This document shows, piece after piece, positions 3,956 to 24,235 of a stretch of DNA of 64,000 bases (positions are counted from its first letter, which is position 1; each line of letters starts with the position of its first letter). Origin of the DNA: an uncultured Planctomycetia bacterium (GTDB lineage Bacteria; Omnitrophota; Gorgyraeia; 2-01-FULL-45-10; JAHFGN01); the NCBI GenBank assembly GCA_964354545.1, contig CAYHAE010000001.1, forward strand, positions 65,190 to 129,189. The letters run 5' to 3'. Made by a program: the position numbers and the translations under genes. The notes beneath the pieces are model-generated. The model was given only the letters and a program-made list of their open reading frames with translations, was not told the DNA's origin and searched no databases.

Positions 3956-3978
3956 CCTAACTGGCGAGGTTGAGGAAG

Positions 3979-4233: not shown

Positions 4234-4249
4234 AACGAAGTAGGAAGCG

Positions 4250-6038: not shown

Positions 6039-6039
6039 A

Positions 6040-7530: not shown

Positions 7531-9208
7531 CAAGTTGCAAGAATGCGAAATAGTAAGCAGCCGTATAATGTATAAGAACAATTCTGATATGAATATTTTA
7601 GGATATATTGATTCTGGAGTAACTGGCTATGATGCGAAACCATTCATTATCATTCCTCCGGGATACGGAGAAACAAAAAAAGATCACATATCAACTGCTT
7701 ATTACTTGGTAAGCAATGGTTTTAATGTGCTTCGTTACGATAATACTAATCATATCGGAGAAAGCGATGGGGAAATGGTAGATTGTAATTTGTTATCAAT
7801 GGAAAAAGATTTGGATGCAAGCATTAATTTCATAACGAGCAATTTTGCTACTGACAAGGTTGGTGTCATAGCTTCTAGCCTTGCTAGTAGAGTTGCCTTT
7901 AAGGTTGCCTCCCGTAATAGCTTTATATCTTTCATTATAAGCTTAGTCGGTGTTACGAATTTGAGAAAATCAATTTATTATGTCTATAAAGAGAAGATGA
8001 TAGAAGGGTACATTAGAGGACGCAGATGGGGCATTACTGATATTTTAGGTTTTGAAGTCAGCGATAATTTTCTAAAAATAGCTGTAGAAAATAATTATGA
8101 TACGTTTATTAGTACACTGAATGACATTAAGCGTATAGAGATTCCAATTTTATATATAGTTGCAGAACATGATGCATGGACCGATATTAAAGATAGTTAT
8201 TTGGTATACAAAAAGACGAAAAATATTAATAAAGAATTGTTTTTTGTTTCTAACGCTTTACATCAAATACAAGAAAACCCAAAGCTTGCAAAACAGGTCA
8301 TTTTGAAAATAGTTAAAAATTGCATTAAATACATGCACAATTGCGCAATTTCAGATGAACAATGCATGGAGCCTGACATACATTTTATAGTACGGCAAAA
8401 TAGAATCGAGCAAACAAATTTAAAAAAAACATTGACGGTAACTAGAAACGACGAAAAAAAATTCTGGACTAAGTATATGTCAGATTACTTTATATTAATG
8501 AAATCCTATGAATATAAAAATTTTTTAAGATTAAACTATGAACTGTTAGGCGGGTTTATAGATGGAAATAATTTCTTAGACGCCGGATGCGGAAATGGGC
8601 ATTTTGGTGCTTGGTTAGCAACTAAATTATGCCAAATTGAAAAAATAAGTCGTCTTCACAATTATAATAAGATTTTGTATACGGGGATAGATTTTGTAGA
8701 CCCACCCCTTAAGGAAGCTTTGGATAAGCACGCAAAATTAATCGCGACTTTATCTAAAAAAGAAAATATTGATTTATTAAAAAAGATGAAATTTGTTTAT
8801 ATCGTAGCTACACTAGAAAATGAGTTACCGCTTGAGAATAATTTTTTTGATAAAATTTGTTGCAATCTTGTTATCTCCTATGTTAAAAAGCCAGTCAAAG
8901 TTATTCAAAATCTCGTAAAAAAAATGAAGGAAGGGGGAAAAATAACGGTAAGTTCTCTAAAGCCAAATAACGATCTTTCTCTCATATATCGTAAGGCGCT
9001 TGATCAATCTTTAACCAGTAAAGAAGTTTTTGAAGCTAGAAGGCTTTTAACGAATGCAGGGAAAATAAAATATAAGGAGAAAATAGGTCATTATACATTT
9101 TTCAATGAATTTGAGTTGCTTGAAGTTTTAAGAAAGGCAGGATGTAAAGAAATACATACTTTTAGAACATTTGGAGACCAAGCAAATATTGCTGTAGGAA
9201 CTAAATAG
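7523..9208 (+). CDS. fusion protein: LuxD-like acyltransferase (alpha/beta hydrolase) domain + class I SAM-dependent methyltransferase domain
   Basis: The N-terminal domain resembles the LuxD myristoyl-ACP acyltransferase family (NGFNVLRYDNTNHIGESDG ... VGVIASSLASRVAF). The C-terminal domain has the LDAGCGNGHFG methyltransferase motif I. Confidence 0.55.
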   Translation: MINKLQECEIVSSRIMYKNNSDMNILGYIDSGVTGYDAKPFIIIPPGYGETKKDHISTAYYLVSNGFNVLRYDNTNHIGESDGEMVDCNLLSMEKDLDASINFITSNFATDKVGVIASSLASRVAFKVASRNSFISFIISLVGVTNLRKSIYYVYKEKMIEGYIRGRRWGITDILGFEVSDNFLKIAVENNYDTFISTLNDIKRIEIPILYIVAEHDAWTDIKDSYLVYKKTKNINKELFFVSNALHQIQENPKLAKQVILKIVKNCIKYMHNCAISDEQCMEPDIHFIVRQNRIEQTNLKKTLTVTRNDEKKFWTKYMSDYFILMKSYEYKNFLRLNYELLGGFIDGNNFLDAGCGNGHFGAWLATKLCQIEKISRLHNYNKILYTGIDFVDPPLKEALDKHAKLIATLSKKENIDLLKKMKFVYIVATLENELPLENNFFDKICCNLVISYVKKPVKVIQNLVKKMKEGGKITVSSLKPNNDLSLIYRKALDQSLTSKEVFEARRLLTNAGKIKYKEKIGHYTFFNEFELLEVLRKAGCKEIHTFRTFGDQANIAVGTK

Positions 9209-9221
9209 AAAATTTAAGCCT

Positions 9222-11357
9222 ATGAACTATTTTGGAATTACAGGCCTCTTGAATGGAATAATAAGCACAATTTTGGGCCTATTTGTAATTACAAGAGATT
9301 TTCGTAATGTTAAATATATTGCCTATTCTCTAGCTTGTTTGAATGTTTCGATTTGGAGCTATAGTTATTTTCTTTGGCAACTCTCTAACGATTATGTAAG
9401 CGCTCTTTTCTGGGCAAGAGCTTTAATGGCAGGTAGTGTTTATACTCCCATTTGTCATTTACATGCCTTAGTAGAAATATTAAATGAAAAAACTAGAAAA
9501 AGGCAAAAAATTATTATTTTAGGATATTTATTAGCCACACTTTTGTTGATTTCTGATTTCGGACCATTTTTAGTAAAGGGTGTTGAATCCAGAATGTTTT
9601 TTCCATTTTGGCCAATTCCTGGCATTGCGTTTCATTTTTTTATAGCCGTATGGGTTTATTACGTTGTATATAGCATTTATATTCTGTATAAACATAGTTT
9701 TAAAATTCAGGTCGCAGATGCAAATAAGATAAAATTTATCTTTATCATAACACTTTTTGTTTGGATTGGTGCCGCAACTAATCTTACATTATGGTATAAC
9801 ATAAACATTCCACCCTGGGGAAACCCGGCCATATCTATTTATTTAATATTGATCGCTTATGCTATATTACGATATCGGTGGATGGACATCGAAGTCGTCA
9901 TCAAGAAGACCCTTGTCTTTGCGGGGTTGTTGGCGGCGGTGTTTGCCATATTAATCCTGCCGACTCTGATTATTCAGGAATATCTTCTGAGAAGTGCTAG
10001 GTTTAGCGGAAGGGCACTGGGTCTTACCGTAAGCGGTATTATCATCATATTCACCATGAGGAAGATCGAAAATTTTCTTATAAATGTAACAGACAAATAC
10101 CTCTTTCAGAAGAAATACGACTACAAAGAGCTGCTCAAGACATTCACCACGGATGTTCTCACGGTCATGAACCTGGACAGGCTCGTGAACCTCACCGTGG
10201 ATAAGCTCGTCGACATCGTAAAGCTCAACTCCTGTGCAGTATTGCTCCTCGATGAGGATAGCCGGCAGTTCACCGTGGTCGCCTCAAAGCATATAAAAGA
10301 CCCCTCGGTGACATTGGTTAAGCCCAATGGCATCATCGCGTTTTTAGAGACTACCCACGGATACCTCTTGAAAAGCGAGCTCGCTCAAAAGAAGGTATTC
10401 ATCCCGGAGCCGGTCCAGGAGGTAATAGATAAGCTTAACGCAGAACTTATCATACCCATGGTGTTACATGATAAGGTTATGGGGATATTATCGCTCGGCA
10501 AGAAGAAGTCCGATGAGGGCTACACCCAAGATGACTGGGATATACTTATGCCGCTTTCCAGGACGCTCGCCATAGCGATCTCTAACGCAAAACTCTTCGA
10601 GGAACTCGGAAAGACCCAGGCGGAGGCGGCACAGAGGGAGAAGATGGCGGTCATCGGGACATTGTCGGCTGGCATAAACCATGAGATTTGTAATCCTCTT
10701 GGCATCGCGCGCGGGCAGTGCGAGGCCTTCCTGTTGAACGTGCGCGATGGCCTGTTCAAAGATAAAAGCCCCGATGAGCTATTAACCAAGGCCAAGGAGA
10801 TAATGCAGAAGGTAATAAAAGAGACCGACCGGGCCGTTTCCATCACCAAGAAGCTTTCGAGTTTCGCAAAGCCGTCTAGGGGCGAGGCGGAGTATATCGT
10901 CATAGATAAAGAAGTGGACGAGGTCCTGGCTCTGGTTGGCTACGAACTGAAATTGGAGAAGATCGAGATCGAGAAGCAAGTAGGAAAAGGTTTACCCGAC
11001 CTTTTCGTCGATAGGAAACAGCTCCAGGAGATCCTTTTCAACCTTATCCGCAATGCCGGCCAGGCGATAGGCGAAAAAGGGAAGATCACGGTCGCGGCCC
11101 ATGAGTTGAAAGGAAAGATAAGCATCGATATCCAGGATACGGGGTCGGGGATCCCTGAGGACAAGATAAAGGAGCTCTTCAATCCATTCTTCACGACCAA
11201 GGAACCGGGCAAAGGCACAGGTCTGGGGTTGTTCATCGTTCGTCAGGTCGTTGAGAAGAACGGCGGACGCATCTATCTCAAACAGACGAAAGTCGGAGAA
11301 GGAACGACATTTACGCTTGAATTTCCTGTTGCGGCAGCGAAGGAAGTTCAGGTTTAA
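9222..11357 (+). CDS. sensor histidine kinase (polytopic N-terminal membrane domain, GAF, HisKA, HATPase_c), paralog 1
   Basis: Multiple TM helices are followed by the [11 protein letters not shown] motif. The H-box is [12 protein letters not shown]-boxes DTGSGI and GTGLGL are present. Confidence 0.8.
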
Positions 11358-11384
11358 GGGGACCGCGGAGAACAGAATTGTGAC

Positions 11385-11756
11385 ATGGAAAAACCACGGA
11401 TAGTTGCAATAGACGATGAAGCCGAATTCGTCGACATGTTGAAGAACTATTTTGCGCCAAGAGGGTATGACATCGAGGTGGCGATCCGCGGGGCAAAGGG
11501 CATCGAGATCGTAAAGGAGAAGAAGCCGAACGTCGTGTTGATGGACCTGAAGATGCCTGGGATCGATGGCGATGAGGTGCTGACGCTCCTCAAATCGATG
11601 GAGCCGGCTCCCAAGGTGATATTCGTGACAGCATATGACGACGGCGGCAAGACGAAGGCGCGCCTCTTGAAGATGGGCGCATACGCGTATTTCGACAAGC
11701 CATTGTCGAGCCTGAAGGATTTGGAAGAGGCGATTAATCAGGCAGCTCAGAAATAA
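11385..11756 (+). CDS. single-domain response regulator (CheY-like receiver)
   Basis: Motifs DDE, VLMDLKMPGIDG and the downstream Lys. Confidence 0.8.
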   Translation: MEKPRIVAIDDEAEFVDMLKNYFAPRGYDIEVAIRGAKGIEIVKEKKPNVVLMDLKMPGIDGDEVLTLLKSMEPAPKVIFVTAYDDGGKTKARLLKMGAYAYFDKPLSSLKDLEEAINQAAQK

Positions 11757-11765
11757 ACGCGTGCA

Positions 11766-11791
11766 GATGATCACCGATATCTGTGATCATC
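11766..11791. promoter_or_regulatory. near-perfect 26-bp palindrome GATGATCACcGATATCtGTGATCATC (24 of 26 positions symmetric)
   Basis: Read directly in the sequence. It lies between the two receiver genes. Confidence 0.5.
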
Positions 11792-11817
11792 TGTGTTCCA
11801 AAAAAACAGGAGTACCC

Positions 11818-12198
11818 ATGCGCAAAATACTCGTGGTCGATGACGAGATCGACGTATGCGATTTCGTGAAGACTTTTTTCGAAGAGAGAGGGTTTAGGGT
11901 TTTTACCGCGCTGAACGGCGCTGAAGCGGTCTCGATCGTTCAGAGAGACAAACCGGATGTGATACTGCTTGATATCAAGATGAAGGGCATGGACGGGCTC
12001 GCTACGCTGCACCAGATCAAGGAGGTTGACCGGGATTCGAAAGTCATCATGGTTACCGCGCTCGAGGACCAGGACAAGATGGAAGAGGCGTATAAATGCG
12101 GCGCGATCGATTACATCACAAAACCCCTCGTCCTGGATTATCTGGAATCGGCGGTGTTAAAGGCATTGGGACTGAGCAACAGCGCGACGATCCGTTAG
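11818..12198 (+). CDS. single-domain response regulator (CheY-like receiver)
   Basis: Motifs VVDDE, ILLDIKMKGMDG and TKP. Confidence 0.8.
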   Translation: MRKILVVDDEIDVCDFVKTFFEERGFRVFTALNGAEAVSIVQRDKPDVILLDIKMKGMDGLATLHQIKEVDRDSKVIMVTALEDQDKMEEAYKCGAIDYITKPLVLDYLESAVLKALGLSNSATIR

Positions 12199-12264
12199 GT
12201 GGGTGAAAAATTTGCTGCACACGAGATCGGGATGCCGTTCAAATCGTACCGACTGTTTTTTCTA

Positions 12265-12385
12265 TTTCAACGCAGATTCTCGCGGATTTCCTGCCCGACG
12301 GCAGGCGGGCACGCAGATACTCGCAGATATCTGCGTTAATCTGCGTTTGATTCGCGTCTATCTGCGTTAACGCATGGTTTTTTAA
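12265..12385. promoter_or_regulatory. cluster of at least six CGCAGAT/ATCTGCG half-sites, including the perfect palindromes CGCAGATATCTGCG and GCGTTAACGC
   Basis: Read directly in the 217-bp intergenic region upstream of the HD-GYP gene. Confidence 0.45.
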
Positions 12386-12415
12386 CGCACTTAATTCCTG
12401 TATCAAGGAGATGCA

Positions 12416-13840
12416 GTGACCTATAACAACCACAGAAAAGCGCCGAGCTGGTCCAAGCTCCAGAACTGGTTTTTACAGCTCAGCGCCGAGGGAGAGAACG
12501 GGAACGGCGCGGTTAAGAATAAAGGCGCAGATGCGTCTGCCCGGGATACCTCTCACGAAAAATTCGCCCCCAGGCTGGATTACCAGGTCTTCTTGGAAAA
12601 TGCTTCGAGGAGCATGATCCGTTTCAAGAAGCCCGAGCACCTCATAAAGATGATCTGCCGCGTCATCAGCGAGCAGCTTAAGGTTACCCACACGGCGATG
12701 CTGCTGTTTAAAGAGTCGAAGAACGCGTACATCCTGATCGATTCAAGGGGCGAGGGCGGGCTGAAGATCCCGGTCGGATATATCCGGCTGCCGTTAGACA
12801 GCCCCCTGATCCAGATATTCAATCAACAACAGAACTTTCTCGTATCGGGCACAGGGACACTGAACTATGACGACATCATCATCTGCCTCAAGAATAGAGA
12901 TATACTCGACAAAGAGCCGGAATTGTACAACGAGCTTTTAGCCCTAAAGAAGCAGATGGACCTGCTGAAGGCGAACGTGTGCGTTCCGTGCTATTTTAAA
13001 CAGGATCTCCTTGGGATCATGATCCTGGGCTACAAGATAAACGGACAGCGTTTCAGAAGAGATGAGCTCGGTTTCTTCGTCACTCTGGCGAACGATGCTG
13101 CGATGGCGATATCGAATGCGCAGCTCATCGAAAGCCAGCTGGAGAGGATCGACGAGATAAAAGAGCTCTATAATCGCGAGCACAGGATATTCATTCACAC
13201 CGCGATCGCGCTTGCCGCGGCCATCGATGCGAGAGACCCGTATACCCACGGCCATACTGCGAGGGTAACGAACTACTGCCTTGCCATCGCGAAAGAGCTG
13301 GAGGGAGTTCCGGAAGAGGGCGGATACAAGAATTTCAAGGAGACCCTGCACCTATCGGCGCTTTTGCACGATGTCGGGAAGATCGGCATACCTGACCACA
13401 TATTGAATAAGACAGGCATGCTCACACCCGAAGAGTATACGGAGGTGAAGAAGCATCCTCTTATAGGCGCGATGATAATAAATCCTATCAAGGAATTGAA
13501 CGAGATCGCGCGGGAAGTGCGCCACCACCAGGAGGCCTTCGACGGTTCCGGCTATCCCGATGGGCTCAAAGAGAGCGAGATACCCTTTATCGCGAGGATC
13601 ATCGCAGTCGCCGACGCGTTCGATGCGATCACCACCGATAGGCCTTACAGGAAGAAGAAAAGCCCTGAGGAGGCAATTAAAGAACTTAAGAAATATTCGG
13701 GAACGCAGTTCGACCCTGTTGTCGTTTCAGCCCTCATCCTCGCCTACGAAAAAGGAAACCTCCTGCCCAACCACAAGAATAGGAACGGTAAGAACGGAAG
13801 TAACGGTATCAAATCTCCCTACCCTGCAAATCCTTTTTAA
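12416..13840 (+). CDS. HD-GYP domain c-di-GMP phosphodiesterase with N-terminal GAF-like sensor
   Basis: HD motif LHDVGKIGIP and GYP motif FDGSGYPDGL. GTG start with an AGGAG RBS. Confidence 0.8.
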   Translation: MTYNNHRKAPSWSKLQNWFLQLSAEGENGNGAVKNKGADASARDTSHEKFAPRLDYQVFLENASRSMIRFKKPEHLIKMICRVISEQLKVTHTAMLLFKESKNAYILIDSRGEGGLKIPVGYIRLPLDSPLIQIFNQQQNFLVSGTGTLNYDDIIICLKNRDILDKEPELYNELLALKKQMDLLKANVCVPCYFKQDLLGIMILGYKINGQRFRRDELGFFVTLANDAAMAISNAQLIESQLERIDEIKELYNREHRIFIHTAIALAAAIDARDPYTHGHTARVTNYCLAIAKELEGVPEEGGYKNFKETLHLSALLHDVGKIGIPDHILNKTGMLTPEEYTEVKKHPLIGAMIINPIKELNEIAREVRHHQEAFDGSGYPDGLKESEIPFIARIIAVADAFDAITTDRPYRKKKSPEEAIKELKKYSGTQFDPVVVSALILAYEKGNLLPNHKNRNGKNGSNGIKSPYPANPF

Positions 13841-13956
13841 CAAATTCACAAAGATCAGGATCTTTGTGAGAACCATATATCCTGAAAAGAAGACAAGGAG
13901 TATGTAATGCCCCCTTTGCTTTGGTTTTCCTGCTATCATGTGGTATATTTAGGGTG

Positions 13957-14805
13957 ATGAACAGGAAGTCTGAGCTCAAGTTCGATGAGATTGGCTATTG
14001 GTCTGAGATGAAACTCGAGATCATCGACGCATATGCTCGAGAATATTCTAAGATCATGTCTTGTCAGACCAGTCCCTCCTTAGAGCATACATATATTGAC
14101 GCTTTTGCTGGCCCTGGAATACACAGATCCAAAGAAACGGGTGACATGATTCCGGGAAGTCCAGAAAAAGCTCTTTCGGTCGTGCCACCCTTCAAGAAGT
14201 ATTGTTTCATAGATCTGGACTCGAATAAGGCGGGTTATTTACATCAACGGTATGATCAAAATCCCACGGTGAGCATTTATGAGGGTGATTGTAATCATAT
14301 TTTGTTGAAAGAAGTGTTCCCCCGAGTGAGATATAGGGATTACAGACGAGGGCTCTGCCTCCTGGATCCGTATGGGCTACATCTTAAGTGGGAAGTTATG
14401 AAAGAGGCGGGCCAGATGCGGTCGATTGAGATATTTCTCAACTTCCCAATAATGGACATGAATAGAAATGTATTCTGGCTTAATCCGGACGGAGTAGATC
14501 TGAGCGACATCGAGAGAATGAATGCTTTTTGGGGAGATGCCTCGTGGCGCGATATCGTATACACTAGCAGACGCGATCTTTTTGGGTATATCGAAAAAGA
14601 ACCCAATCCGGTGATTGCCGAGAACTTTAGGGATCGGCTCAAGAAAGTTGCGGGGTTTCAGTATGTAGCTAAGCCATTGCCCATGAGAAACGAAAAAAAT
14701 GCGGTGATATACTACCTCTTTTTTGCATCTCAAAAACCGGTTGCTGCTAAGATTGTCGATTACATATTTGACAAATATGGGAAGAGGAGGTTTGATAATG
14801 GCTGA
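13957..14805 (+). CDS. three-Cys-motif partner protein (TcmP-like)
   Basis: About 280 aa. The gene is co-directional with the following Gp37/Gp68 gene and overlaps it by 8 nt. Its identity is inferred mainly from this conserved pairing. AT-rich. Confidence 0.4.
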   Translation: MNRKSELKFDEIGYWSEMKLEIIDAYAREYSKIMSCQTSPSLEHTYIDAFAGPGIHRSKETGDMIPGSPEKALSVVPPFKKYCFIDLDSNKAGYLHQRYDQNPTVSIYEGDCNHILLKEVFPRVRYRDYRRGLCLLDPYGLHLKWEVMKEAGQMRSIEIFLNFPIMDMNRNVFWLNPDGVDLSDIERMNAFWGDASWRDIVYTSRRDLFGYIEKEPNPVIAENFRDRLKKVAGFQYVAKPLPMRNEKNAVIYYLFFASQKPVAAKIVDYIFDKYGKRRFDNG

Positions 14806-15550
14806 GTATTCCTCGATAGAGTGGACAGACTCAACCTGGAATCCGGCAACCGGTTGCAGCAAGGTCAGTTTGGGATGCAAAAATTGTTATGCAGAGACCT
14901 TTGCGGAGAGGTTTCGGGGTGTCCCGCGGCATCCATTCGAGCAGGGATTTGACTTAAAACTGTGGCCAAATCGGTTGAGTTTGCCTCTATTATGGAGAGA
15001 GCACCGCATGATTTTCGTTAACTCCATGTCTGACCTCTTCCACGAGGACGTTCCCGACGAATTTATTGCGAAGGTTTTTGAGACGATGCTACAGGCAGAT
15101 CGTCACACCTTTCAGTTGCTGACCAAGCGATCGGAACGGATGGTGCGCTGGATCCAAAAACGATTCAATCGATATCTGGTACCGCAACATATTTGGCTCG
15201 GGGTTTCCGTTGAAAATCAGGAATATGTGCGGAGGATCCATCATCTACAGAGGATGCCGGCATGCGTCAGGTTTGTATCCTGCGAACCGTTGCTAGGCCC
15301 TATTACGTTCGATTCGCGGGACCTGAACGGAATACATTGGGTTATTGTTGGCGGCGAGAGTGGGCCCAAGGCCAGGCCCATGGATCCATTGTGGGCTCGG
15401 GATATAAAGGATCAATGCGAACAAAATGAAGTGGCGTTCTTTTTCAAACAATGGGGGACGTTCAACGCCCGTGGAGAACGGGTCGGAAAGAAAAACGCCG
15501 GAAGGGTTTTGGATGGCAAGGTATGGGATCAAATGCCGGCAATGGTCTAA
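14798..15550 (+). CDS. phage Gp37/Gp68-family protein (three-Cys motif)
   Basis: N-terminal signature SSIEWTDSTWNPATGCSKVSLGCKNCYAE with C-x6-C-x2-C. About 250 aa. Confidence 0.65.
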   Translation: MAEYSSIEWTDSTWNPATGCSKVSLGCKNCYAETFAERFRGVPRHPFEQGFDLKLWPNRLSLPLLWREHRMIFVNSMSDLFHEDVPDEFIAKVFETMLQADRHTFQLLTKRSERMVRWIQKRFNRYLVPQHIWLGVSVENQEYVRRIHHLQRMPACVRFVSCEPLLGPITFDSRDLNGIHWVIVGGESGPKARPMDPLWARDIKDQCEQNEVAFFFKQWGTFNARGERVGKKNAGRVLDGKVWDQMPAMV

Positions 15551-15560
15551 GGGATGATCA

Positions 15561-16469
15561 ATGGATAGCCTGGTCGCCAAAAAATTTTATCTGAAAAAGA
15601 GAGAAGTCTCGGAAAAGTTAGAAAACGATATCTTGCAGACACAGCGTGAAATTTCTTCAAGAGGAACAATTCGCTCAAGCGTATTTTTAAATGTCGCTTT
15701 CAAGCTTATCTCAGAATCGGCAAGAGAAAATATTGATTCACTTCTAAAGATATATGAGGATGTGGGTATTTCTACAAGCGAGGAAACCTTTGTGATCGAC
15801 AAGGAAGCTGAGATAAAGGGCGAGGTCGAGAAACTTGTCCCGATTGAGGCCCAGCGGGTGAATGAGAAAATAGATGATTTGGCAAAAAGAATAGGAATAG
15901 CGCGCCCTCATGATGCCAGTTACGTATTTACTAACTTACAGGTAGAAGCGCGAGACAGGGCTGAGATTCTTATCGAGACGATACGGCGCCGTATTCAAAA
16001 TAAGCAACCTAAAAAGTCACTCACCGACGATGTCTTTGTTATCATGCAGATCGGCAATCCTCAGCTCGACAAGATCTGGAAAGATATATATGTTCCCGTA
16101 ATCGGAGATTTTAAGTTGCACCCGAAGCGAATTGATAAGCATGGTGAGGGTCGCTTCTTAATGAGCGAAGTAGCTGGCTATCTGAACAATAGTAAACTTG
16201 TCATTGCCGATTTAACCAACGCCCGGCCTAATTGCTATCTCGAGGTAGGTTACACATTGGGCGTCGATAAGAACAGCCACCTGATCCTTTGTGCCCGGGA
16301 AGATCATAATATGGATAGCCCTTGTTACAAAAGGGATGGACCTAAAGTGCATTTCGATATAAGCGGCTATGATATAGTGTGGTGGGATGAAAATAAGATC
16401 GACGATTTTAAGATAGACCTGGCCAAAAAGATTACTTATAGGTTAACAGTCATCGGCAGCCAGAAATAG
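15561..16469 (+). CDS. hypothetical protein with C-terminal SLOG/TIR-like (nucleoside 2-deoxyribosyltransferase-like) domain
   Basis: C-terminal pattern VFVIMQIG...LVIADLT...NPNCYLEVGYTLGVDKNSHLIL resembles the NDT/TIR-like fold. The N-terminal half is alpha-helical and has no match. AT-rich. Confidence 0.35.
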   Translation: MDSLVAKKFYLKKREVSEKLENDILQTQREISSRGTIRSSVFLNVAFKLISESARENIDSLLKIYEDVGISTSEETFVIDKEAEIKGEVEKLVPIEAQRVNEKIDDLAKRIGIARPHDASYVFTNLQVEARDRAEILIETIRRRIQNKQPKKSLTDDVFVIMQIGNPQLDKIWKDIYVPVIGDFKLHPKRIDKHGEGRFLMSEVAGYLNNSKLVIADLTNARPNCYLEVGYTLGVDKNSHLILCAREDHNMDSPCYKRDGPKVHFDISGYDIVWWDENKIDDFKIDLAKKITYRLTVIGSQK

Positions 16470-16832
16470 AAAGAGATTTTCATTTTGAAAAATAGCATTA
16501 TTGAGATGCTAGGGGGGCAGCTTCCGCAGGGGCAGGTCTCGTAGCCGTTAAGGACAAATAAAGATTTTTGTAAGAATTTTCCCTCTTTTACGTCTTCAGA
16601 TGATGGGACGGAGAAGGGGGGATTTTTATGGTTATGCGATATCTACCGTCAAGTCTCGAATTAAGATGCAGAACAGGTTTGAGATTGCGAAACAGAGTAT
16701 TTCGAAATATAATATGCTTGGTTGTATCATTTTCGATTTCAATCTCCAAGCTGTCCCTAGTCTCATCTTCAAAGCGTACAGGGGCATATTGAATCGTAAT
16801 TTCCCAAACGCACAGTCCTATATTAGAGAACA

Positions 16833-18905
16833 ATGAATATTTTTACCATTTCTTCAGCTTTAATTTTTGTAACATCTTTAACTTCCGTAGCATTCCTATT
16901 ATTTAAAGGTAAAGAAAAACTAAAATGGCTATGGCTTCTATTTTCTATCTCCGTTGGAAATTGGGGACTTGCGGGCTATAACATATCAACTGCGCATTCA
17001 AAAGATATTGCCTTCGTATGGTGGAAAATCGCATATATTAGTGTAATTTTTGCTCCCGCGATCTATACGCATTTTGTTTTCACTTTTCTAAATAGTACGA
17101 AAAAATCGCTTCTCATATTGTTAGACATCGCAGCCTTTTCTTTTTTTGGTTTTAATCTATTATTTCCCAAGTTGTTTATTGGCGATCTGCGCCTTGTTTC
17201 TAGACAATTTTGGTGGCCCGATTGGCTAAGTACTTGCAACATCGTGTTTTTAATTTTTTTTGTTGCTTTTTATTGTTTCGCGCTCAATTATAGCATTTTA
17301 TTAATGATAAAACAGTTTTCCACCTCAACAGGTAGAAAGCGAAATCAGGCAAGATATTTTTTAATTGCAGCGATTTTTGGATGGGGCGGCGTTATGCCGC
17401 TTTTTTTGAATGTATTTTCGCATATTGACATTTATCCTTATAGTAATTTTTTGACATCAATTTACCCACTCATTGTCACCTACGCCATCATCCGCCATCG
17501 GCTGATGGACATCGAAGTCATCATAAAGAAGACCCTCATATTTGCGGGGTTATTCTCGGCGGCTTATGCGGTCTTCGCTTCTTTTGCCCTCTTGGGGCAG
17601 CTTGTCTTCGAGCGGTTCGTGACAGCCAACAGATGGGTCGCAATGCTCCCGAGCGTGGTAGTTGTCATCGCCATGTTCCGTCCTCTCGAGAAACTCCTGG
17701 TTGCTGTTACTGACAGGTACCTCTTCCAGAAGCGGTACGATGCCAAAGAGCTTCTCAAGATCTTCACCGAGGAGGTCCTTTTAGTCCTTGATATAGAGAA
17801 ACTTGCCGCCCTCACCATGAAAAAGCTCAACGAGACGATGAAGCTAACCACCTGCGCGCTCCTCCTCAAGGACGACGCGGCAGGAGACTTCGTATGCGCC
17901 TCGCCTCCTCCGGCAAACAAGGTGAGCTTATCCCGCGCAAGCGGCCTCGCCGTATCGCTGGAGAGATCGTCCTCTTTCATCTTGCGTACACATAGTGCGA
18001 GGATACCGGATACTGTAGCGAGCGACATGACACATCTCCGCGCAGAGCTCGCCATCCCCCTTCTCCTTCGCGGAAATCTCATCGGCATCCTCGCCCTCGG
18101 CAGGAAGATGTCAGATGAGGACTATGGCCAGGACGACTTGGACATACTTCTTCCTCTCGCGCAGACTCTCGCCATTGCCATCTCGAACGCGAAACTCTTC
18201 GACGAGCTCTCGAAGACCCAGGCAGAGGCAGCGCAGAAGGAGAAGATGGCGATGGTCGGAACCCTCGCCGCAGGCATGGCCCACGAGATAAGGAACCCCA
18301 TCACCACCATTAAGATATTCTCAGAATTCCTCAAGGAGAAGAAGGACGACCCCTCCTTCATCGAGAAGTTCGAGCGCCTCGTTCCAAGGGAGGTGGAGAA
18401 GATAAACCACATGATCACCCACCTCCTCGAGTTCTCAAGGCCCGCAGATTCCGCAGCAATGGAAGAAGTAGACCTCCATGAAGCCCTCAAGGACACGCTC
18501 GAGGTCCTCGGCCACGAGATGGTCTTACATGACATCGTCCTTAAAGAGGAGATAAGCGCTCTGCCTCCAGTATGGGGCAACCGGAAGCATCTCGAGGAGG
18601 TCCTCTTCAACCTCCTCCAGAACGCCATCCATGCCATAGGGAGGCGAGGTACCATCACCGTCACTGCGAAGGAGAGGGCAGGCTCAGTCGAGCTTGCCAT
18701 CCGCGACACCGGCTGCGGCATCCCCCAAAACGTCCTCCCCCACATATTCGAGCCCTTCTTCACCACCAAGATAGACACAAAAGGAGTAGGCCTTGGGCTC
18801 TATGTAGTCAAACAGCTCATGGTGAGGATGGACGGCTCTGTATCAGTCGAGAGTGAAGTAGGGAAGGGGACGACGTTCAGGCTGGTGTTCGCAAGGGCCA
18901 CATAA
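16833..18905 (+). CDS. sensor histidine kinase paralog 2 (7TM, GAF, HisKA, HATPase_c)
   Basis: Same architecture as 9222-11357, with the motifs LMDIEVIIKKT and GMAHEIRNP. Confidence 0.8.
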   Translation: MNIFTISSALIFVTSLTSVAFLLFKGKEKLKWLWLLFSISVGNWGLAGYNISTAHSKDIAFVWWKIAYISVIFAPAIYTHFVFTFLNSTKKSLLILLDIAAFSFFGFNLLFPKLFIGDLRLVSRQFWWPDWLSTCNIVFLIFFVAFYCFALNYSILLMIKQFSTSTGRKRNQARYFLIAAIFGWGGVMPLFLNVFSHIDIYPYSNFLTSIYPLIVTYAIIRHRLMDIEVIIKKTLIFAGLFSAAYAVFASFALLGQLVFERFVTANRWVAMLPSVVVVIAMFRPLEKLLVAVTDRYLFQKRYDAKELLKIFTEEVLLVLDIEKLAALTMKKLNETMKLTTCALLLKDDAAGDFVCASPPPANKVSLSRASGLAVSLERSSSFILRTHSARIPDTVASDMTHLRAELAIPLLLRGNLIGILALGRKMSDEDYGQDDLDILLPLAQTLAIAISNAKLFDELSKTQAEAAQKEKMAMVGTLAAGMAHEIRNPITTIKIFSEFLKEKKDDPSFIEKFERLVPREVEKINHMITHLLEFSRPADSAAMEEVDLHEALKDTLEVLGHEMVLHDIVLKEEISALPPVWGNRKHLEEVLFNLLQNAIHAIGRRGTITVTAKERAGSVELAIRDTGCGIPQNVLPHIFEPFFTTKIDTKGVGLGLYVVKQLMVRMDGSVSVESEVGKGTTFRLVFARAT
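18120..18905. repeat. about 0.8-kb segment near-identical to 20377-21162 (HK catalytic half)
   Basis: The encoded C-terminal roughly 260 aa of HK2 and HK3 are nearly identical. Minus-strand ORFs 18122-18778 and 20379-21035 translate almost identically. Confidence 0.8.
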
Positions 18906-19014
18906 CGTCATTGCGAACGAAGTGAAGCAATCCCGTTTTTAGAGAGTGCGAAGCCTCCCCGTAAGGGGATTGCTTCGTCGGGAGATAGTTGCGCGCTATC
19001 CTCCTCGCAATGAC
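18906..19014. repeat. palindromic intergenic element (GTCATTGCGA...GAAGCAATCCC...GGGATTGCTTC...TCGCAATGAC), copy A
   Basis: Nested inverted repeats read directly. Related copies are at 24136-24235 and 56286-56345, with a degenerate copy at 21164-21195. Confidence 0.6.
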
Positions 19015-19080
19015 ACATACAGGTTAAATCGTGATTTCCCAAACGGTACAGTTTTAACTGTACAAGCAGGCTAACCTAAT

Positions 19081-21162
19081 ATGACCCCGATAGATTATTT
19101 TTATAAAGGGTTGCCATTAGCAGTAGGCACTTTCGCGTTGACACTAGGCGTTATTGCAATAAAGTATAGTGCAAAACGTTTATTGAGTCGTTTGTTAGCG
19201 CTTATTTGTCTTGGGGGAGTGTTATGGTTATATCCAGCCTTTATCATGTACATATTTCCAAAACAACCCTTGGTTGTGATATGGTCTTCGAAAGTCGTTT
19301 ATATTGGAGTAACGTTTATCGTAGTTTTCTATGCACATTTTACCTCTAAATTCTTGGGCTTAAAAAATAGGCTTTTTTTGATTATAGTCTATAGTCTCGG
19401 GATTATCTTTATTTTGATGTCAGTATTTACTAATAACATTATAGATGGATTCTACATATATTTTTGGGGAGCGTACCCCAAAGCCGGATCTCTATTTTCG
19501 TTCTATTGGTTTTATGCGCTTAGTTGTTTTGCCTATTGTTTGGTACGCCTTTATCAGGCTAGCTATGGTGTTCTTACTTCCACATATAGTAGTACTGAAC
19601 GGAATAGGATTAAGCATGTTTTTTGGGCGTATCTTCTGGGGAATTTCGGTGCATTTGATTTCATTCCAAGCTACGGTTTTGAATCTTATCCATTTGGTTG
19701 CTTCAATATCGCCATATTTATATCAGTTTTAGCATATGCGATTATCCGCCACCAGCTTCTTGACATCGAAGTCATCATCAAAAAGACCCTTGTCTTCGCA
19801 GGGCTCTTTGCCGCAGTGTACATAGTCTTCGCCTCGTTCGCGCTCATCGGGCAGGTCTTCTTTGAACGGTTCATTACTGCTAATAGGTGGATCTCGACGA
19901 TCCCGAGCGTCATCGTCGTCACCTTCATCTTCCGCCCCCTCGAGAAGCTCCTCATCACCGCGAGCGACAGGTTCCTCTTTCAGAAGAAGTACGACTACAA
20001 GGAGCTCCTCAGGACGTTCACGACAGAAGTCCTCACGGTGCTCGACACCGCGGAGCTCGCCTCGCTCACCGTAAAGAAGCTCTGCGACATCATAAAGCTC
20101 GCCTCGTGCGCGATGCTCCTCAAAGACGAGGCGCAGGGCGAATGTAAGGTCGTATCCTCGCAAGGACTTGCCACAGGGTCGATCGCGCTTGCGAAAGAGA
20201 GCGAGCTCTGCGAAGTATTAGAGAAGACTCATTCCTATGTCATGGCAGCGGGCGATACAGTAAGCCCTGCGCTGCAAGAGGAGATGCGCGTCTTGGGCGC
20301 AGAGCTCATCATACCGCTTATCCTCCACACTAAGCTCATCGGCGTCTTATCGCTTGGGAAAAAGAAATCAGACGAACCCTATACCCAGGACGACCTCGAC
20401 ATCCTTCTGCCTCTCTCGCGGCCCCTCGCCATTGCCATCTCGAACGCGAAACTCTTCGACGAGCTCTCGAAGACGCAGGCAGAGGCGGCGCAGAGGGAGA
20501 AGATGGCTGTCCTCGGCACCCTCGCCGCAGGCATGGCCCATGAGATAAGGAACCCCATCACCACAATCAAGATATTCTCAGAGTTCCTCAAAGAGAAGAA
20601 GGACGACCCCTCCTTCATCGAGAAGTTCGAGAGGCTTGTTCCTAAAGAGGTAGAGAAGATAAACCACATGATCACCCACCTCCTCGAGTTCTCAAGGCCC
20701 GCAGATTCCGCAGCAATGGAAGAAGTAGACCTCCATGAAGCCCTCAAGGACACGCTCGAGGTCCTCGGCCACGAGATGGTCTTACATGACATCGTCCTTA
20801 AAGAGGAGATAAGCGCTCTGCCTCCAGTATGGGGCAACCGGAAGCATCTCGAGGAGGTCCTCTTCAACCTCCTCCAGAACGCCATCCATGCCATAGGGAG
20901 GCGAGGTACCATCACCGTCACTGCGAAGGAGAGGGCAGGCTCAGTCGAGCTTGCCATCCGCGACACCGGCTGCGGCATCCCCCAAAACGTCCTCCCCCAC
21001 ATATTCGAGCCCTTCTTCACCACCAAGATAGACACAAAAGGAGTAGGCCTTGGGCTCTATGTAGTCAAACAGCTCATGGTGAGGATGGACGGCTCTGTAT
21101 CAGTCGAGAGTGAGGCAGGGAAGGGGACGACGTTCAGGCTGGTGTTTGTGACGGCCACATAA
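19081..21162 (+). CDS. sensor histidine kinase paralog 3 (7TM, GAF, HisKA, HATPase_c)
   Basis: Same architecture as HK2. The catalytic half is near-identical to HK2. Confidence 0.8.
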   Translation: MTPIDYFYKGLPLAVGTFALTLGVIAIKYSAKRLLSRLLALICLGGVLWLYPAFIMYIFPKQPLVVIWSSKVVYIGVTFIVVFYAHFTSKFLGLKNRLFLIIVYSLGIIFILMSVFTNNIIDGFYIYFWGAYPKAGSLFSFYWFYALSCFAYCLVRLYQASYGVLTSTYSSTERNRIKHVFWAYLLGNFGAFDFIPSYGFESYPFGCFNIAIFISVLAYAIIRHQLLDIEVIIKKTLVFAGLFAAVYIVFASFALIGQVFFERFITANRWISTIPSVIVVTFIFRPLEKLLITASDRFLFQKKYDYKELLRTFTTEVLTVLDTAELASLTVKKLCDIIKLASCAMLLKDEAQGECKVVSSQGLATGSIALAKESELCEVLEKTHSYVMAAGDTVSPALQEEMRVLGAELIIPLILHTKLIGVLSLGKKKSDEPYTQDDLDILLPLSRPLAIAISNAKLFDELSKTQAEAAQREKMAVLGTLAAGMAHEIRNPITTIKIFSEFLKEKKDDPSFIEKFERLVPKEVEKINHMITHLLEFSRPADSAAMEEVDLHEALKDTLEVLGHEMVLHDIVLKEEISALPPVWGNRKHLEEVLFNLLQNAIHAIGRRGTITVTAKERAGSVELAIRDTGCGIPQNVLPHIFEPFFTTKIDTKGVGLGLYVVKQLMVRMDGSVSVESEAGKGTTFRLVFVTAT
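20377..21162. repeat. second copy of the 0.8-kb duplicated HK catalytic segment
   Basis: See 18120-18905. Confidence 0.8.
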
Positions 21163-21305
21163 CCTCATTGACAGGAAGGCGTTCCCGCAATGACGGAGAT
21201 TTCATGTAAAGCAGCCATCTGCTCCAACGTAACGGGTATTTGACAAGCGCATGATCATCGTGTATACTTGTTTCAGTAAGTAATCATAAACATAGACTAG
21301 CTGAA

Positions 21306-21914
21306 ATGAACTTCAAAGAACTCTATAAAGTTGTAGAGAAGAATAGATATTATGTATTTTCGTTCGAAGACCTGCTCTCTTTTTTCCCACACGAGAGAAG
21401 GGCGACGCTCAAGGAGTCGGTCTATAGATGGAAGATGAAAGGATGGATCTACCCTCTCAAAAAAGGGCTTTACGAGCTAACCTATCCCAAAGATTTCGAT
21501 ATCCCCGATATGTATATTGCCAATAGGCTATATGGCCCTTCTTACATCTCATTGGAAACAGCGCTTTCGAATTGCAGCATTATTCCGGAAGTATCGATGG
21601 CGGTCACTTCCATAACCACAAAACCGACGCGGAAGTTCAAGAATAAGCACGGGCTTTTCATCTATCATACTGTGAAGCCCGCCTCATTTACAGGATACTA
21701 TGTCGAGAGACAGGGTGCTTTTGATATTCTCATTGCCGAACCGGAAAAAGCGCTCATAGATTTTCTATATTTTAATGCATACCGCGACAAAAAGTTTGAC
21801 CTCAAAGACGAACGGCTGGACAGAGGAGTCGTTTCGCGGCTTAATAAGAAGAAACTGCATCGCTACGCCGCCCTCTATAACATCGATCTAAAAGGACTCC
21901 ATGCTTACCTATGA
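21306..21914 (+). CDS. AbiEi-type antitoxin/transcriptional regulator (type IV TA / abortive infection)
   Basis: About 200 aa with an N-terminal winged-helix-like region. The gene overlaps the AbiEii-like gene by 14 nt. Confidence 0.55.
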   Translation: MNFKELYKVVEKNRYYVFSFEDLLSFFPHERRATLKESVYRWKMKGWIYPLKKGLYELTYPKDFDIPDMYIANRLYGPSYISLETALSNCSIIPEVSMAVTSITTKPTRKFKNKHGLFIYHTVKPASFTGYYVERQGAFDILIAEPEKALIDFLYFNAYRDKKFDLKDERLDRGVVSRLNKKKLHRYAALYNIDLKGLHAYL

Positions 21915-22704
21915 TGCGTTGAAAGCGTACGCTCGATCGAGAGGGATGCCACCGACGAAGATGAGAGGTGTTTTACGGGAGTACCTCCAGGTTCTTATAT
22001 TGAAGGAGATGTATAAAACCGGAGCCGGGAAAAAACTCTATTTCACAGGAGGAACCTACCTGCGGCTTGCCCATAACCTTAAGAGGTTTTCCGAAGACCT
22101 CGATTTTAATACAGCCGGCATAAGGAAGAATGAGTTCGAGGATCTGATCGGCAGAATAAAAGTAGAATTGAAAAGGATAAATATGGAATCCCGGATGCGA
22201 TTTGACCACTGGGACAACATATACGCAGCCCGTCTCATTTTTCCAACCATCGAGGGGGCCTACGGCATAGTGTCGGGCTATTCAAAAAAAGAAGGGATAA
22301 TAATAAAAATCGAGACAAATCGTCCGCGATGGAGAATAAAAAAGGAGACTCATGTCGTATCGGGGTTTGGCGAATTTTACCCATGCATATGCACGGATAA
22401 GGGCGCATTATTTGCGGATAAAATAGATGCGCTCGGCAAAAAGGCGCGCGGCAGGCATGTGTACGATGTAATGTTTATGCTCGCGAATCGCGTTCCCGTC
22501 GACAGGCGTGTTTTGTCATCCTTTGGTATAGATGACGACCCTTTGGATGCGATCGAGAGGAGGATCATGAGTTTCTCGAAGCAGGAGTTGAAAAAGCAGG
22601 CAGAGACCCTGAGGCCTTTTTTGTTCGAGGAAAGCGAGGCGGACTTCGTTGTCAACGCACACACTATTATTCCATCGCTCCTGGAAAAATACAGGAGAAG
22701 ATGA
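21901..22704 (+). CDS. AbiEii/AbiGii-family nucleotidyltransferase toxin
   Basis: Motif YFTGGTYLRL...RFSEDLDFN is characteristic of the DUF1814/AbiEii NTase. Confidence 0.65.
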   Translation: MLTYDALKAYARSRGMPPTKMRGVLREYLQVLILKEMYKTGAGKKLYFTGGTYLRLAHNLKRFSEDLDFNTAGIRKNEFEDLIGRIKVELKRINMESRMRFDHWDNIYAARLIFPTIEGAYGIVSGYSKKEGIIIKIETNRPRWRIKKETHVVSGFGEFYPCICTDKGALFADKIDALGKKARGRHVYDVMFMLANRVPVDRRVLSSFGIDDDPLDAIERRIMSFSKQELKKQAETLRPFLFEESEADFVVNAHTIIPSLLEKYRRR

Positions 22705-22778
22705 CCGCATCATTGAGCTTCCGGCAACTTCCATCGTTCCAGTCTCAATCTTAATCTCAATCTTTCAAGCGATGCACC

Positions 22779-23168
22779 CTAACTGTGAAACAATCGCAGA
22801 ATGCGTGGGCGCGTGAGGTAAAACACTAAGAGGATGTGATAGAGGATAGAGGAAGCATTTTTTATACCCGTCGGTATATAGGTGAACACCTCGCCTGAGA
22901 AATGGAGAAGATTCATGAATATCAGTATCTTTGTAAGGACTATGTACCCGGAGAAGAAGACGAGCAGAGCCCTCGCCCAGTCCCTGTAATTGAGGAGGCC
23001 GACGCCGAGGATGGCAGACGTGACCGCTGATGCGAGGACAAAGGTGAAGACATTGAACGGCTTCGTCGACAGAGAGAGGACCGAATGGATGATGAGGCTC
23101 GCGAGCGTCGCAAGGCCGATGAATATCTCTATAAGCGCTATCGCCTTCACTGCGAGGCGGTCGTTCAT
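22779..23168 (-). CDS. small polytopic membrane protein, unknown function
   Basis: Three to four predicted TM helices. It overlaps the upstream receiver gene by 4 nt, so the two are probably co-transcribed. Confidence 0.45.
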   Translation of the reverse strand: MNDRLAVKAIALIEIFIGLATLASLIIHSVLSLSTKPFNVFTFVLASAVTSAILGVGLLNYRDWARALLVFFSGYIVLTKILIFMNLLHFSGEVFTYIPTGIKNASSILYHILLVFYLTRPRILRLFHS

Positions 23169-23527
23169 CTCTCCTCCGTGAGTTTTTTGACCGCCTTTAC
23201 GATGTCGGCACGCTCGAAGGGTTTTACGATATAATCGGACGCGCCTGCGCTCACTGCCTCTTGTGCAGTCTCTACGCTTTTGTAGCCGCTCGTAACCAAG
23301 ATCTTAATATTCGGCCGTATCGTTTTCAGCTCCCGCATCGTCTCGATCCCATCCATCCGAGGCATCTTTATATCCATTATCACAATATCAACAGGCGCTT
23401 TCTTCATGATATCTATGGCTTCCTTGCCTCTTGTTGCAAATGAAAGCTCATACTCTTTTTCGAGGATCAATTTTAAAGATTCCCTGATGCCTTCTTCATC
23501 GTCGCAAATGAGGATTCGTTTCTTCAT
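23165..23527 (-). CDS. single-domain response regulator (CheY-like receiver)
   Basis: Motifs ICDDEE and VIMDIKMPRMDG. Confidence 0.8.
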   Translation of the reverse strand: MKKRILICDDEEGIRESLKLILEKEYELSFATRGKEAIDIMKKAPVDIVIMDIKMPRMDGIETMRELKTIRPNIKILVTSGYKSVETAQEAVSAGASDYIVKPFERADIVKAVKKLTEER

Positions 23528-23568
23528 GGAGCTCTCCTGGTTACAATTGCGATTAAGATTCCCACGCC

Positions 23569-24120
23569 CTACAGCATAGGCGGGCTTACGACGCAGATAA
23601 GACGCGCCTCAGACGTCCCTACATTTTTGAAATAGTGTGATACTGATGAGTCGAAGTAGAGCGTATCGCCTTTGTTTAAGGTATAATTCTTGGCACCAAT
23701 CACGACCTCGACTTTTCCGGTAACGACATACACGAACTTCTCCACACCCTTCTTGTTCTCTTCCGTATGGGTAACGCCCTTAGGTTCGAGTCTGACCATG
23801 ATCGGCATCATCTTTTTATCCAGGACCTTCGGCGTCAGCATCTCTGATATCGACTTGTTGTCGTGGACAAAAATGTCTGTCCTCTCGGATGCCGTCTGAA
23901 TAATGGGATTGCTTTGGGAAGGGGAGAGGTCCTGATAGAGCTCAGGGAGCGTAATACCAAGGGCAGCGCAGATCGCCGTGTGTGATTCCAGCGTACCCGT
24001 CATCTTATTGTTTTCTATACGGCTTAACGTCGCGAGCGCAACACCCGATTCCCTTGAGAGCTCAAGGAGGGTGAGCCCTTTTTGTTTGCGTAAGTTACGA
24101 ATTCGTTCTCCGATCTTCAT
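23569..24120 (-). CDS. XRE-family HTH transcriptional regulator with C-terminal cupin domain
   Basis: N-terminal IRNLRKQKGLTLLELSRESGVALATLSRIE HTH. The C-terminal half has a cupin-like beta-barrel pattern. Confidence 0.75.
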   Translation of the reverse strand: MKIGERIRNLRKQKGLTLLELSRESGVALATLSRIENNKMTGTLESHTAICAALGITLPELYQDLSPSQSNPIIQTASERTDIFVHDNKSISEMLTPKVLDKKMMPIMVRLEPKGVTHTEENKKGVEKFVYVVTGKVEVVIGAKNYTLNKGDTLYFDSSVSHYFKNVGTSEARLICVVSPPML

Positions 24121-24135: not shown

Positions 24136-24235
24136 GTCATTGCGAGCGCCCCTGAGCGAAGCGAAAGGGGAGCGAAGCAATCCCGCTTTTAGAGGTTGCT
24201 TCGTCAGTTACTTGAGCAGCCTCCTCGCAATGACA
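24136..24235. repeat. palindromic intergenic element, copy B
   Basis: GTCATTGCGAG...GCGAAGCAATCCCGC...CTCGCAATGAC read directly. Confidence 0.6.

Follow-up and report, generated by a model that had tools for sequence, protein, structure and literature searches.

Two tandem 7TM-GAF histidine kinase genes of an uncultured Omnitrophota bacterium and the probable repeated conversion of their kinase halves

How do two neighbouring histidine kinase genes come to encode membrane sensors that are only distantly alike and yet carry several hundred base pairs of kinase-coding DNA that are letter for letter the same? The question is raised by a 64,000-nt stretch of contig CAYHAE010000001.1 (assembly GCA_964354545.1), part of a short-read metagenome-assembled genome (MAG) of an uncultured Omnitrophota bacterium; we refer to this whole stretch as the window, and coordinates are those of the window unless another locus is named. 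It holds three kinase genes, HK1, HK2 and HK3, each encoding a seven-transmembrane (7TM) sensor, a GAF domain and a kinase core made up of the dimerization and histidine phosphotransfer (DHp) domain and the catalytic and ATP-binding (CA) domain. We compared HK2 with HK3 segment by segment, with synonymous and nonsynonymous divergence (dS and dN) obtained by the Nei–Gojobori method, set the genes against 80 Omnitrophota loci from GTDB species representatives, and used Logan k=31 contigs (L162 and L164 from ERR3804374, L163 and L165 from ERR3804373) as independent assembly data. The comparison points to repeated gene conversion as the likely answer. The genes and the segments on which the argument turns are as follows (GC3 is the G+C content of third codon positions).

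9222–11357, plus strand: HK1, 7TM-GAF histidine kinase with a type-B core, 711 aa; identified by Pfam and synteny and matched 100% by Logan contig L162
16833–18905, plus strand: HK2, accessory 7TM-GAF kinase paralog of 690 aa, core of type A (HEIRNPITTIK); N-terminal half and join to the preceding islet confirmed by Logan contig L165
19081–21162, plus strand: HK3, accessory 7TM-GAF kinase paralog of 693 aa, core of type A; protein P0001
16833–17500, plus strand: 7TM sensor module of HK2; GC3 0.33; about 20% aa identity to the HK3 sensor
19081–19755, plus strand: 7TM sensor module of HK3; GC3 0.35; closest relatives P0012, P0011 and P0010, from other genomes
18040–18395, plus strand: putative older homogenised zone, copy 1 (GAF C-terminus and DHp); dS 0.74 falling to 0.37
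18396–18856, plus strand: perfectly identical tract, copy 1 (end of the DHp and most of the ATP-binding domain); 461 bp
20297–20652, plus strand: putative older homogenised zone, copy 2, from comparison with copy 1
20653–21113, plus strand: second copy of the perfectly identical tract; the first base of Logan contig L164 is 21084

Stepwise similarity of HK2 and HK3

The original prediction for this DNA, made from the sequence alone, described paralogous kinases of which two combine diverged sensor halves with a nearly identical catalytic half of 0.8 kb. Alignment confirmed both the divergence of the sensors, the 7TM parts of HK2 and HK3 being about 40–45% identical in DNA and about 20% in protein, and the near-identity of a catalytic part. 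A zone of similarity of the predicted kind does exist, but its perfect part is 461 bp (18396–18856 = 20653–21113, at a constant offset of 2257) and its flanks are about 90% identical. Over 18120–18905, HK2 differs from HK3 at 38 of 786 bp (95.2% identity), and over 18168–18905 at 26 of 738 bp, every one of the latter lying outside the 461-bp tract. When this clustering of differences was put to a GENECONV-type run test, a run as long as 461 bp arose in 0 of 200000 permutations (P < 5e-6), and the analytic bound was 2e-10. On the 5′ side of the tract, identity climbs from about 58–70% (from about 18015) to about 82–91% over 18105–18395; on the 3′ side there are six differences in the final 49 bp of the gene, and the similarity extends about 8–14 nt beyond the stop codon. 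The identical out-of-frame open reading frames (ORFs) that had also been remarked upon are real (a 218-aa pair and a 94-aa pair) but trivial as evidence, because the DNA itself is identical.

A comparison of synonymous divergence between the N- and C-terminal halves, which had been proposed as a check, gave saturation at one end and zero at the other, with steps in between. The dS between HK2 and HK3 is saturated in the 7TM part, 2.1 in the linker, 1.6 in the N-terminal part of the GAF domain and saturated again in mid-GAF; it is 0.74 over 18040–18167, 0.37 over 18168–18395 (dN 0.03), 0 over the 152 codons of the tract and 0.27 in the tail (the last 16 codons). Against P0004, the foreign protein most similar to the kinase half, the dS of HK2 and HK3 is 1.24–1.33 in the DHp and 1.02 in the tract.

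The relatives of the two genes also change from one segment to the next, as judged by pairwise identities and without bootstrapped trees. For the 7TM and for the GAF segment, HK2 and HK3 each have closer relatives elsewhere than in one another: the HK3 7TM is 57% identical to that of P0012, 52% to P0011 and 48% to P0010, compared with 20% to HK2, the best relative of the HK2 7TM reaches at most 33%, and the identity between the two GAF domains is 49%, compared with 57–62% for either against P0033. The DHp domains, by contrast, are 96% identical and the CA domains 98%, the next best relative of the latter reaching 62%. On these alignments HK2 and HK3 appear to be two old paralogs with a common young kinase half.

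Origin of the shared kinase half

We consider it likely that the 3′ halves of the anciently diverged HK2 and HK3 genes have been overwritten repeatedly by non-allelic gene conversion. The two genes would be accessory paralogs of an Omnitrophota-specific 7TM-GAF kinase family, diverged long ago and lying head to tail in a variable spot beside the conserved HK1-RR1-RR2-HD-GYP operon, and the overwritten region would comprise the end of the GAF domain, the DHp, the ATP-binding domain, the stop codon and a few bases more. One or more older events would have run from about 18040 or 18168 to just beyond the stop codon, and would have supplied the identity required by a recent event at 18396–18856; the 5′ junctions would fall within the stretch encoding a family-wide conserved motif, where distant paralogs are still about 72–78% identical in DNA. 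Because there are at least three tiers of divergence, one event is insufficient and at least two are needed, and the stepwise dS profile is better explained by conversion than by a lone duplication or exchange of domains. The pattern of the sequence suggests a RecA-type enzymatic mechanism. The expectation that gene conversion or duplication had homogenised the kinase core is thus upheld as to recombination, which is supported by dS, by the incongruence of the segments, by the comparison with P0004 and by the stepwise profile, with conversion as the preferred form.

A similar outcome, with no ongoing conversion, would follow if the kinase half or the entire gene had recently been duplicated once and a third paralog had then supplied one of the copies with a new sensor half. 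This is the classic course of lineage-specific expansion with domain shuffling, a general pattern described for bacterial histidine kinases, orphan kinases among them (PMC1630713); modules are reassorted throughout the 7TM-GAF family, and the spot that holds HK2 and HK3 is variable and rich in mobile elements. Such a history, however, predicts one level of divergence, whereas we see three tiers (0.74, 0.37 and 0) and a diverged tail, and it fits poorly with the exclusion of all 26 differences of the last 738 bp from the 461-bp tract and with a window that holds no donor copy of either sensor half, so that we regard it as unlikely. Strong purifying selection acting on the kinase core alone after an old duplication is scarcely credible. 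The DHp is indeed conserved family-wide (mean aa identity of 72% among 49 type-B kinases), but the CA domain averages just 56% conservation across the family, and there is not one synonymous difference in 152 codons for which the nearest foreign relative has a dS of about 1.0; a dS of 0 rules out purifying selection, on its own, as the cause. Bearing on programmed inversion of the shufflon kind, a repeat search found no inverted repeats of at least 30 nt in 8500–22500, and the HK2/HK3 repeats are direct. General Pfam, NCBIfam and PADLOC scans of the genes around HK2 and HK3 turned up no recombinase.

The identity could also have been made or exaggerated during assembly, by collapse or bubble-popping of copies or strains, or the tandem order could be chimeric. 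The source is a short-read MAG, the 461-bp tract exceeds typical reads, and short reads cannot phase the two copies; exact-protein look-ups with HK2, HK3 and P0001 matched no contig, and both intact proteins occur solely on one NCBI contig (133763 bp). Logan contig L163 (ERR3804373_899197), which corresponds to window 20593–23920 and runs on into the AbiEi gene downstream of HK3, is a hybrid, with HK2-type bases at seven of seven sites in 18375–18395 and HK3-type bases at seven of seven tail sites, and within the tract it carries a 4-nt cluster (18702–18707) that turns CGC into GAG (Arg to Glu) and makes one synonymous change. It could be a path produced by bubble-popping, or else a genuine allele that arose by recombination or deletion; in both cases the sister sample shows polymorphism inside the tract, and the phase that the MAG gives for the flanking variants is provisional. 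Against an artefact, the copies have different flanks on either side, and a unique spacer (18857–19080) joins a kinase 3′ end to the start of HK3. Contig L164, an exact match to window 21084–23707, starts k−1 = 30 nt before the final base of the tract, as a true two-copy repeat predicts at k=31, and the tract boundary is therefore a branch point in the reads. L162 (window 1691–11876) and L165 (15195–18047) match the neighbouring sequence exactly, and collapse could mask a few single-nucleotide differences at most, not raise an identity of about 50% to about 90–100%. The original prediction had named an assembly artefact as the finding that would overturn it; the Logan contigs confirm the 3′ boundary of the tract, L163 leaves part of the caveat standing, and we judge an artefact to be quite improbable.

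Several points nevertheless weigh against repeated gene conversion. Both intact genes are known from a single MAG contig, and the hybrid L163 with its 4-nt variant means that the perfect identity may in part be consensus collapse. Conversion may have run in either direction between the two genes, and the partner specificity and cognate regulator discussed below are ones that we infer. Our scans for relatives in other genomes gave no true HK2/HK3 orthologs with which to date the events: among GTDB species representatives no genome exceeded 45% identity, and in a metagenome scan with the HK2 kinase half generic kinase motifs dominated, the best among the matches listed being 41% identical, with no close relatives. 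A literature search on gene conversion in histidine kinases found no paper, and none turned up that refers to the runs ERR3804373 or ERR3804374.

The kinase family and its surroundings

HK1, HK2 and HK3 align over their full length, with the H, N, G1, F and G2 boxes intact in all three, and by sequence they are class I (HisKA/HATPase_c) sensor histidine kinases. Pfam gave HATPase_c in each (91–99 bits; the boxes read NLLQNAIHA, DTGCGI, FEPFFTTK and GVGLGL in the alignment), a GAF match (GAF_2/GAF_3/GAF) at about residues 317–455, between the membrane part and the DHp, and HisKA with E = 1e-11 for HK2 and HK3 and weakly for HK1 (E = 1.7e-4, below the cut-off). The HisKA_7TM family (PF16927, gathering threshold 28.6 bits) was found above threshold in HK1 (39.1 bits) and HK2 (38.2 bits); the N-terminus of HK3 has no match to it at E ≤ 1e-3, yet is multi-pass and alignable with those of HK1 and HK2. 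Of the motifs said to be common to all three kinases, HEIRNP is found in HK2 and HK3 and is replaced by HEICNP in HK1, which has the other core type. Solved structures resemble the C-terminal core only (the closest being ZraS, ThkA and KinB), and the nearest public proteins to HK1–HK3 all come from Candidatus Omnitrophota MAGs.

The genes around the kinases, apart from the repeats considered below, are these.

11385–11756, plus strand: RR1, receiver-only response regulator (Pfam Response_reg); orthologs (43–87%) directly after the type-B kinase in most loci
11761–12198, plus strand: RR2, receiver-only response regulator (Pfam); conserved position
12416–13840, plus strand: GAF-HD-GYP protein (HD_5; Pfam), presumed cyclic di-GMP (c-di-GMP) phosphodiesterase output; conserved position
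13921–14805, plus strand: TcmP (TIGR04474; NCBIfam), in the islet; with the next gene a match to the PADLOC candidate defence system PDC-M41A/B
14723–15550, plus strand: DUF5131 protein (Pfam), in the islet; PADLOC PDC-M41A/B
15561–16469, plus strand: 302-aa protein with a weak TIR-effector match (PADLOC TIR), in the islet
21306–21914, plus strand: AbiEi, of a type IV toxin-antitoxin/abortive-infection pair
21901–22704, plus strand: AbiEii, of the same type IV toxin-antitoxin/abortive-infection pair
23165–23527, minus strand: RR3, receiver-only; conserved convergent neighbour in many loci
23569–24120, minus strand: helix-turn-helix (HTH)-cupin regulator; conserved convergent neighbour in many loci

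The order type-B kinase, RR1, RR2, GAF-HD-GYP recurs in most of the 80 loci, often followed by convergent RR3 and HTH-cupin genes. HK1 is, by this synteny, the kinase of a phylum-wide operon, with the type-A kinases HK2 and HK3 outside it. The distance from the HD-GYP gene to RR3/HTH-cupin is below 700 bp in at least 20 loci, compared with 9.3 kb in the window, where the gap contains TcmP/DUF5131 and the TIR-like protein, HK2, HK3, AbiEi/AbiEii and a small membrane protein. An AT-rich islet had been proposed to be inserted between the HD-GYP gene and HK2; synteny supports the insertion, 13921–16469 being absent from this position in other loci, but with a GC3 of 0.47–0.56 against 0.66–0.70 in its flanks the islet is only moderately AT-richer. 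Together with AbiEi/AbiEii, it makes the surroundings of HK2 and HK3 look like a small defence island within a conserved operon neighbourhood.

Other loci show related arrangements. In L166 the HD-GYP gene is followed by P0004 and then by another 7TM kinase, and L003 has two tandem type-A kinases in the same spot after HD-GYP, with diverged cores; the L003 pair was rejected as orthologous to HK2 and HK3, since despite the same gene order the DHp is about 60% and the CA domain 21–44% identical. Two types of kinase core (A, HEIRNPITTIK, and B) and two types of linker occur in the family, in all four combinations, and the closest 7TM relatives of HK3 carry every combination of linker and kinase type. 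The tandem pair of L001 (5979–8108 and 10001–12091), a type-B and a type-A kinase, has a common middle part with 93–97% protein identity, its linker and GAF block being 80–91% identical in DNA with dS 0.7–1.4 between saturated flanks. In the tandem pairs of L017 (102–4378) and L022 (4034–8364) the DHp blocks are 94% and 91% identical, with dS 0.19 and 0.56, respectively. Partial homogenisation and module reassortment thus appear to be habits of the 7TM-GAF family, with the window as the most recent case.

The third codon positions of these genes change in composition where the sensor ends. In the first approximately 220 codons of HK1–HK3, the 7TM part, GC3 is 0.26–0.35 and T3, the corresponding T content, is 0.41–0.44, and from the RHxLMDIEVIIKKT motif onward GC3 is 0.55–0.9. 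Low-GC3 modules of this kind lie at 9222–9880, 16833–17500 and 19081–19755 in the window, at 5979–6640 and 10001–10660 in L001 and at 1799–2470 in L166, and 56 of 60 family genes show the step, whose median size is +0.175 and whose maximum is +0.48. No other segment varies as much as the 7TM, which has a mean identity of 25% compared with 72% for the DHp among the 49 type-B kinases. AT-rich codons of membrane segments were rejected as the cause, because GC3 is 0.55–0.80 in the two transmembrane (TM) helices of the HK1–HK3 linkers and because in three other polytopic proteins of the window TM GC3 is at least as high as non-TM GC3; an assembler chimera was likewise rejected, L162 being identical across the HK1 junction and the step recurring in L001, L166 and the 56 of 60 genes. 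The step may reflect the import of sensor cassettes from an AT-rich pool, or GC-biased conversion confined to segments that recombine; the hypothesis of GC-biased conversion has been set out elsewhere (PMC4450053). The family-wide step could become a test case for recombination-linked evolution of base composition in bacteria.

A more far-reaching and rather doubtful possibility is a cassette system, in which three conserved junction motifs (including RHxLMDIEVIIKKT and AISNAxLF..QAEAAQxEKMA) would act as joints for the exchange and renewed homogenisation of sensor, GAF and kinase modules between neighbouring paralogs. Recombinants would still be segregating in the population sampled (L163), and the 7TM would be in a separate regime, through AT-rich import or exclusion from GC-biased conversion.

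A palindromic element had been placed 3′ of both HK2 and HK3, where we found the following.

18907–19014, no strand assigned: 108-bp palindromic dispersed element with GTCATTGCGA...TCGCAATGAC termini, in the HK2–HK3 spacer; folds at −50.5 kcal/mol (z −6.1)
21163–21196, no strand assigned: degenerate 33-nt hairpin (TCATTG...CAATGA), a putative remnant of the element arms, after HK3; −12.5 kcal/mol (z −2.8)

The full GTCATTGCGA...TCGCAATGAC form therefore follows HK2, and HK3 has the degenerate hairpin only. Element sites in the window occur as pairs at 18907/19005 and 24136/24225 and singly at 56288 (five matches, against 0.15 expected), giving elements that span 18907–19014, 24136–24234 and 56288 to about 56345; they have an inner core, GAAGCAATCCCG...TTTTAGAG, a size of about 100 bp and folding z values of −6.1 and −5.1. 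Seven other Omnitrophota loci, L004, L033, L036 and L054 among them, contain an element with the same termini, also downstream of kinases. With terminal inverted repeats, several copies and a stable predicted fold, it can be classed as an element like the repetitive extragenic palindromes (REP) or miniature inverted-repeat transposable elements (MITE). Rfam holds no family for it, nor for anything elsewhere in 8–26 kb, the sole match being a chance one to sR12 below threshold. A Y1_Tnp transposase gene lies between the two kinases of L001.

Some further observations concern the rest of the window, which is a strong GC mosaic, with blocks of GC3 0.27–0.39 (4250–9900 and 33084–38673) beside regions of GC3 0.7–0.8 (for example 38846–64000). 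The low-GC3 blocks carry lipid/polyketide-like biosynthesis, PEGA/SHOCT, trypsin-like and TPR genes, and the left one ends inside HK1, a boundary conserved in L001. A gene cluster at 1978–9208, upstream of HK1 and syntenic with L001 8–5982, encodes two ketoacyl synthases, a ketoreductase, an acyl carrier protein, a nitroreductase, an amine oxidase and an acyltransferase-methyltransferase fusion, which suggests a lipid or polyketide-like product, possibly tied to the signalling operon. Two copies (about 110–130 bp, about 94% identical) of the start of a small ORF (MPEENVFTVQELARYLKMKPVTIYKHAKEGKLP...), which by eye alone resembles an excisionase-type HTH protein, flank a 174-aa ORF at 760–888 and 1671–1799, and L162 breaks exactly at the second copy. 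The ORF at 24525–33068 is a giant of 2847 aa with a sole Pfam match, to Peptidase_C39 (residues 1668–1757); giant genes have reportedly been found in Omnitrophota (bioRxiv 10.1101/2023.11.21.568195).

Function and comparison with known systems

The sequences of HK2 and HK3 coincide from the phospho-accepting histidine to the end of DHp helix 1 and differ by one conservative R/K exchange where helix 2 begins. Residues of the DHp helices reportedly set partner specificity, according to work from the Laub laboratory, and with near-identical helices HK2 and HK3 are therefore expected to phosphorylate the same receiver. Two different membrane sensors would then feed one receiver-only regulator, for which RR1, RR2 and RR3 are the candidates, in what appears to be a many-to-one design, and the outputs would be the GAF-HD-GYP protein, acting in c-di-GMP turnover, and possibly the HTH-cupin regulator. 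By consensus matches only, a promoter-like site lies 5′ of HK2 and none in the HK2–HK3 spacer, so that the two genes may be co-transcribed. The 461-bp direct repeat should make the locus prone to a RecA-dependent deletion of 2257 bp, after which one hybrid gene would remain, beginning with the HK2 sensor and ending with the HK3 tail.

Paralogous kinases usually diverge, which insulates their pathways. HK2 and HK3 would instead represent a clean, datable case of partial gene conversion in which the specificity-setting phosphotransfer half is kept identical and the sensors differ, and the locus gives a hint of how a small-genome, uncultured phylum may wire several sensors to one receiver and HD-GYP output. 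The prediction that the same regulator is phosphorylated by HK2 and HK3 can be tested. There is also a practical warning, in that a tree of kinase domains would wrongly make the duplication behind HK2 and HK3 a recent one, and loci of this kind cannot be phased in short-read assemblies. For specialists the locus gains moderate interest from the nested tracts, the recurrence across the phylum and the GC3 step.

Among described kinases, those with HisKA_7TM (PF16927) have a sensor module without known ligand that HK1 and HK2 share, but the HK3 sensor falls below the threshold of that family and the 7TM is hypervariable here, with its mean identity of 25%. PrsK of the XrtA/PEP-CTERM system (TIGR02916) is alike in its multi-pass N-terminus, GAF, HisKA and HATPase_c, the model covering residues 208–688 of HK3; membership was ruled out by scores of 164 bits (HK3) and 129 bits (HK1) against a cut-off of 300, and the neighbours of HK1–HK3 are receiver-only regulators and an HD-GYP protein rather than PrsR.

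Both pattern and mechanism are otherwise ordinary, belonging to a known type of kinase expansion and to ordinary prokaryotic concerted evolution. Lineage-specific expansion of histidine kinases, with shuffling of N-terminal domains and orphan kinases, was described by Alm, Huang & Arkin 2006 (PMC1630713), and the present locus is like it in having near-identical kinase domains with different sensors, no co-transcribed regulator and a region rich in signalling genes. It differs in that the units exchanged are homologous modules (7TM, linker, GAF and kinase) of one family, and in its nested conversion tracts, gene conversion being unaddressed in that study. Prokaryotic concerted evolution by gene conversion, the subject of a survey (PMC6053082), likewise leaves paralogs within a genome closer to each other than to homologs elsewhere, and HK2 and HK3 share with it the sharp boundaries and a tract dS of about 0. 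In our case part of a gene is homogenised and the remainder is as diverged as random members of the family. The classic cases are whole housekeeping genes, such as tufA/tufB.

Architectures in which many sensors feed one receiver are familiar from Vibrio, where LuxN, LuxQ and CqsS act on LuxU, and from Bacillus, where KinA–E act on Spo0F. HK2 and HK3 resemble these systems in combining different sensors with compatible phosphotransfer surfaces and, presumably, one receiver; their convergence is deduced from sequence identity, with RR1, RR2 and RR3 as the candidates for the receiver that LuxU and Spo0F provide in those bacteria.

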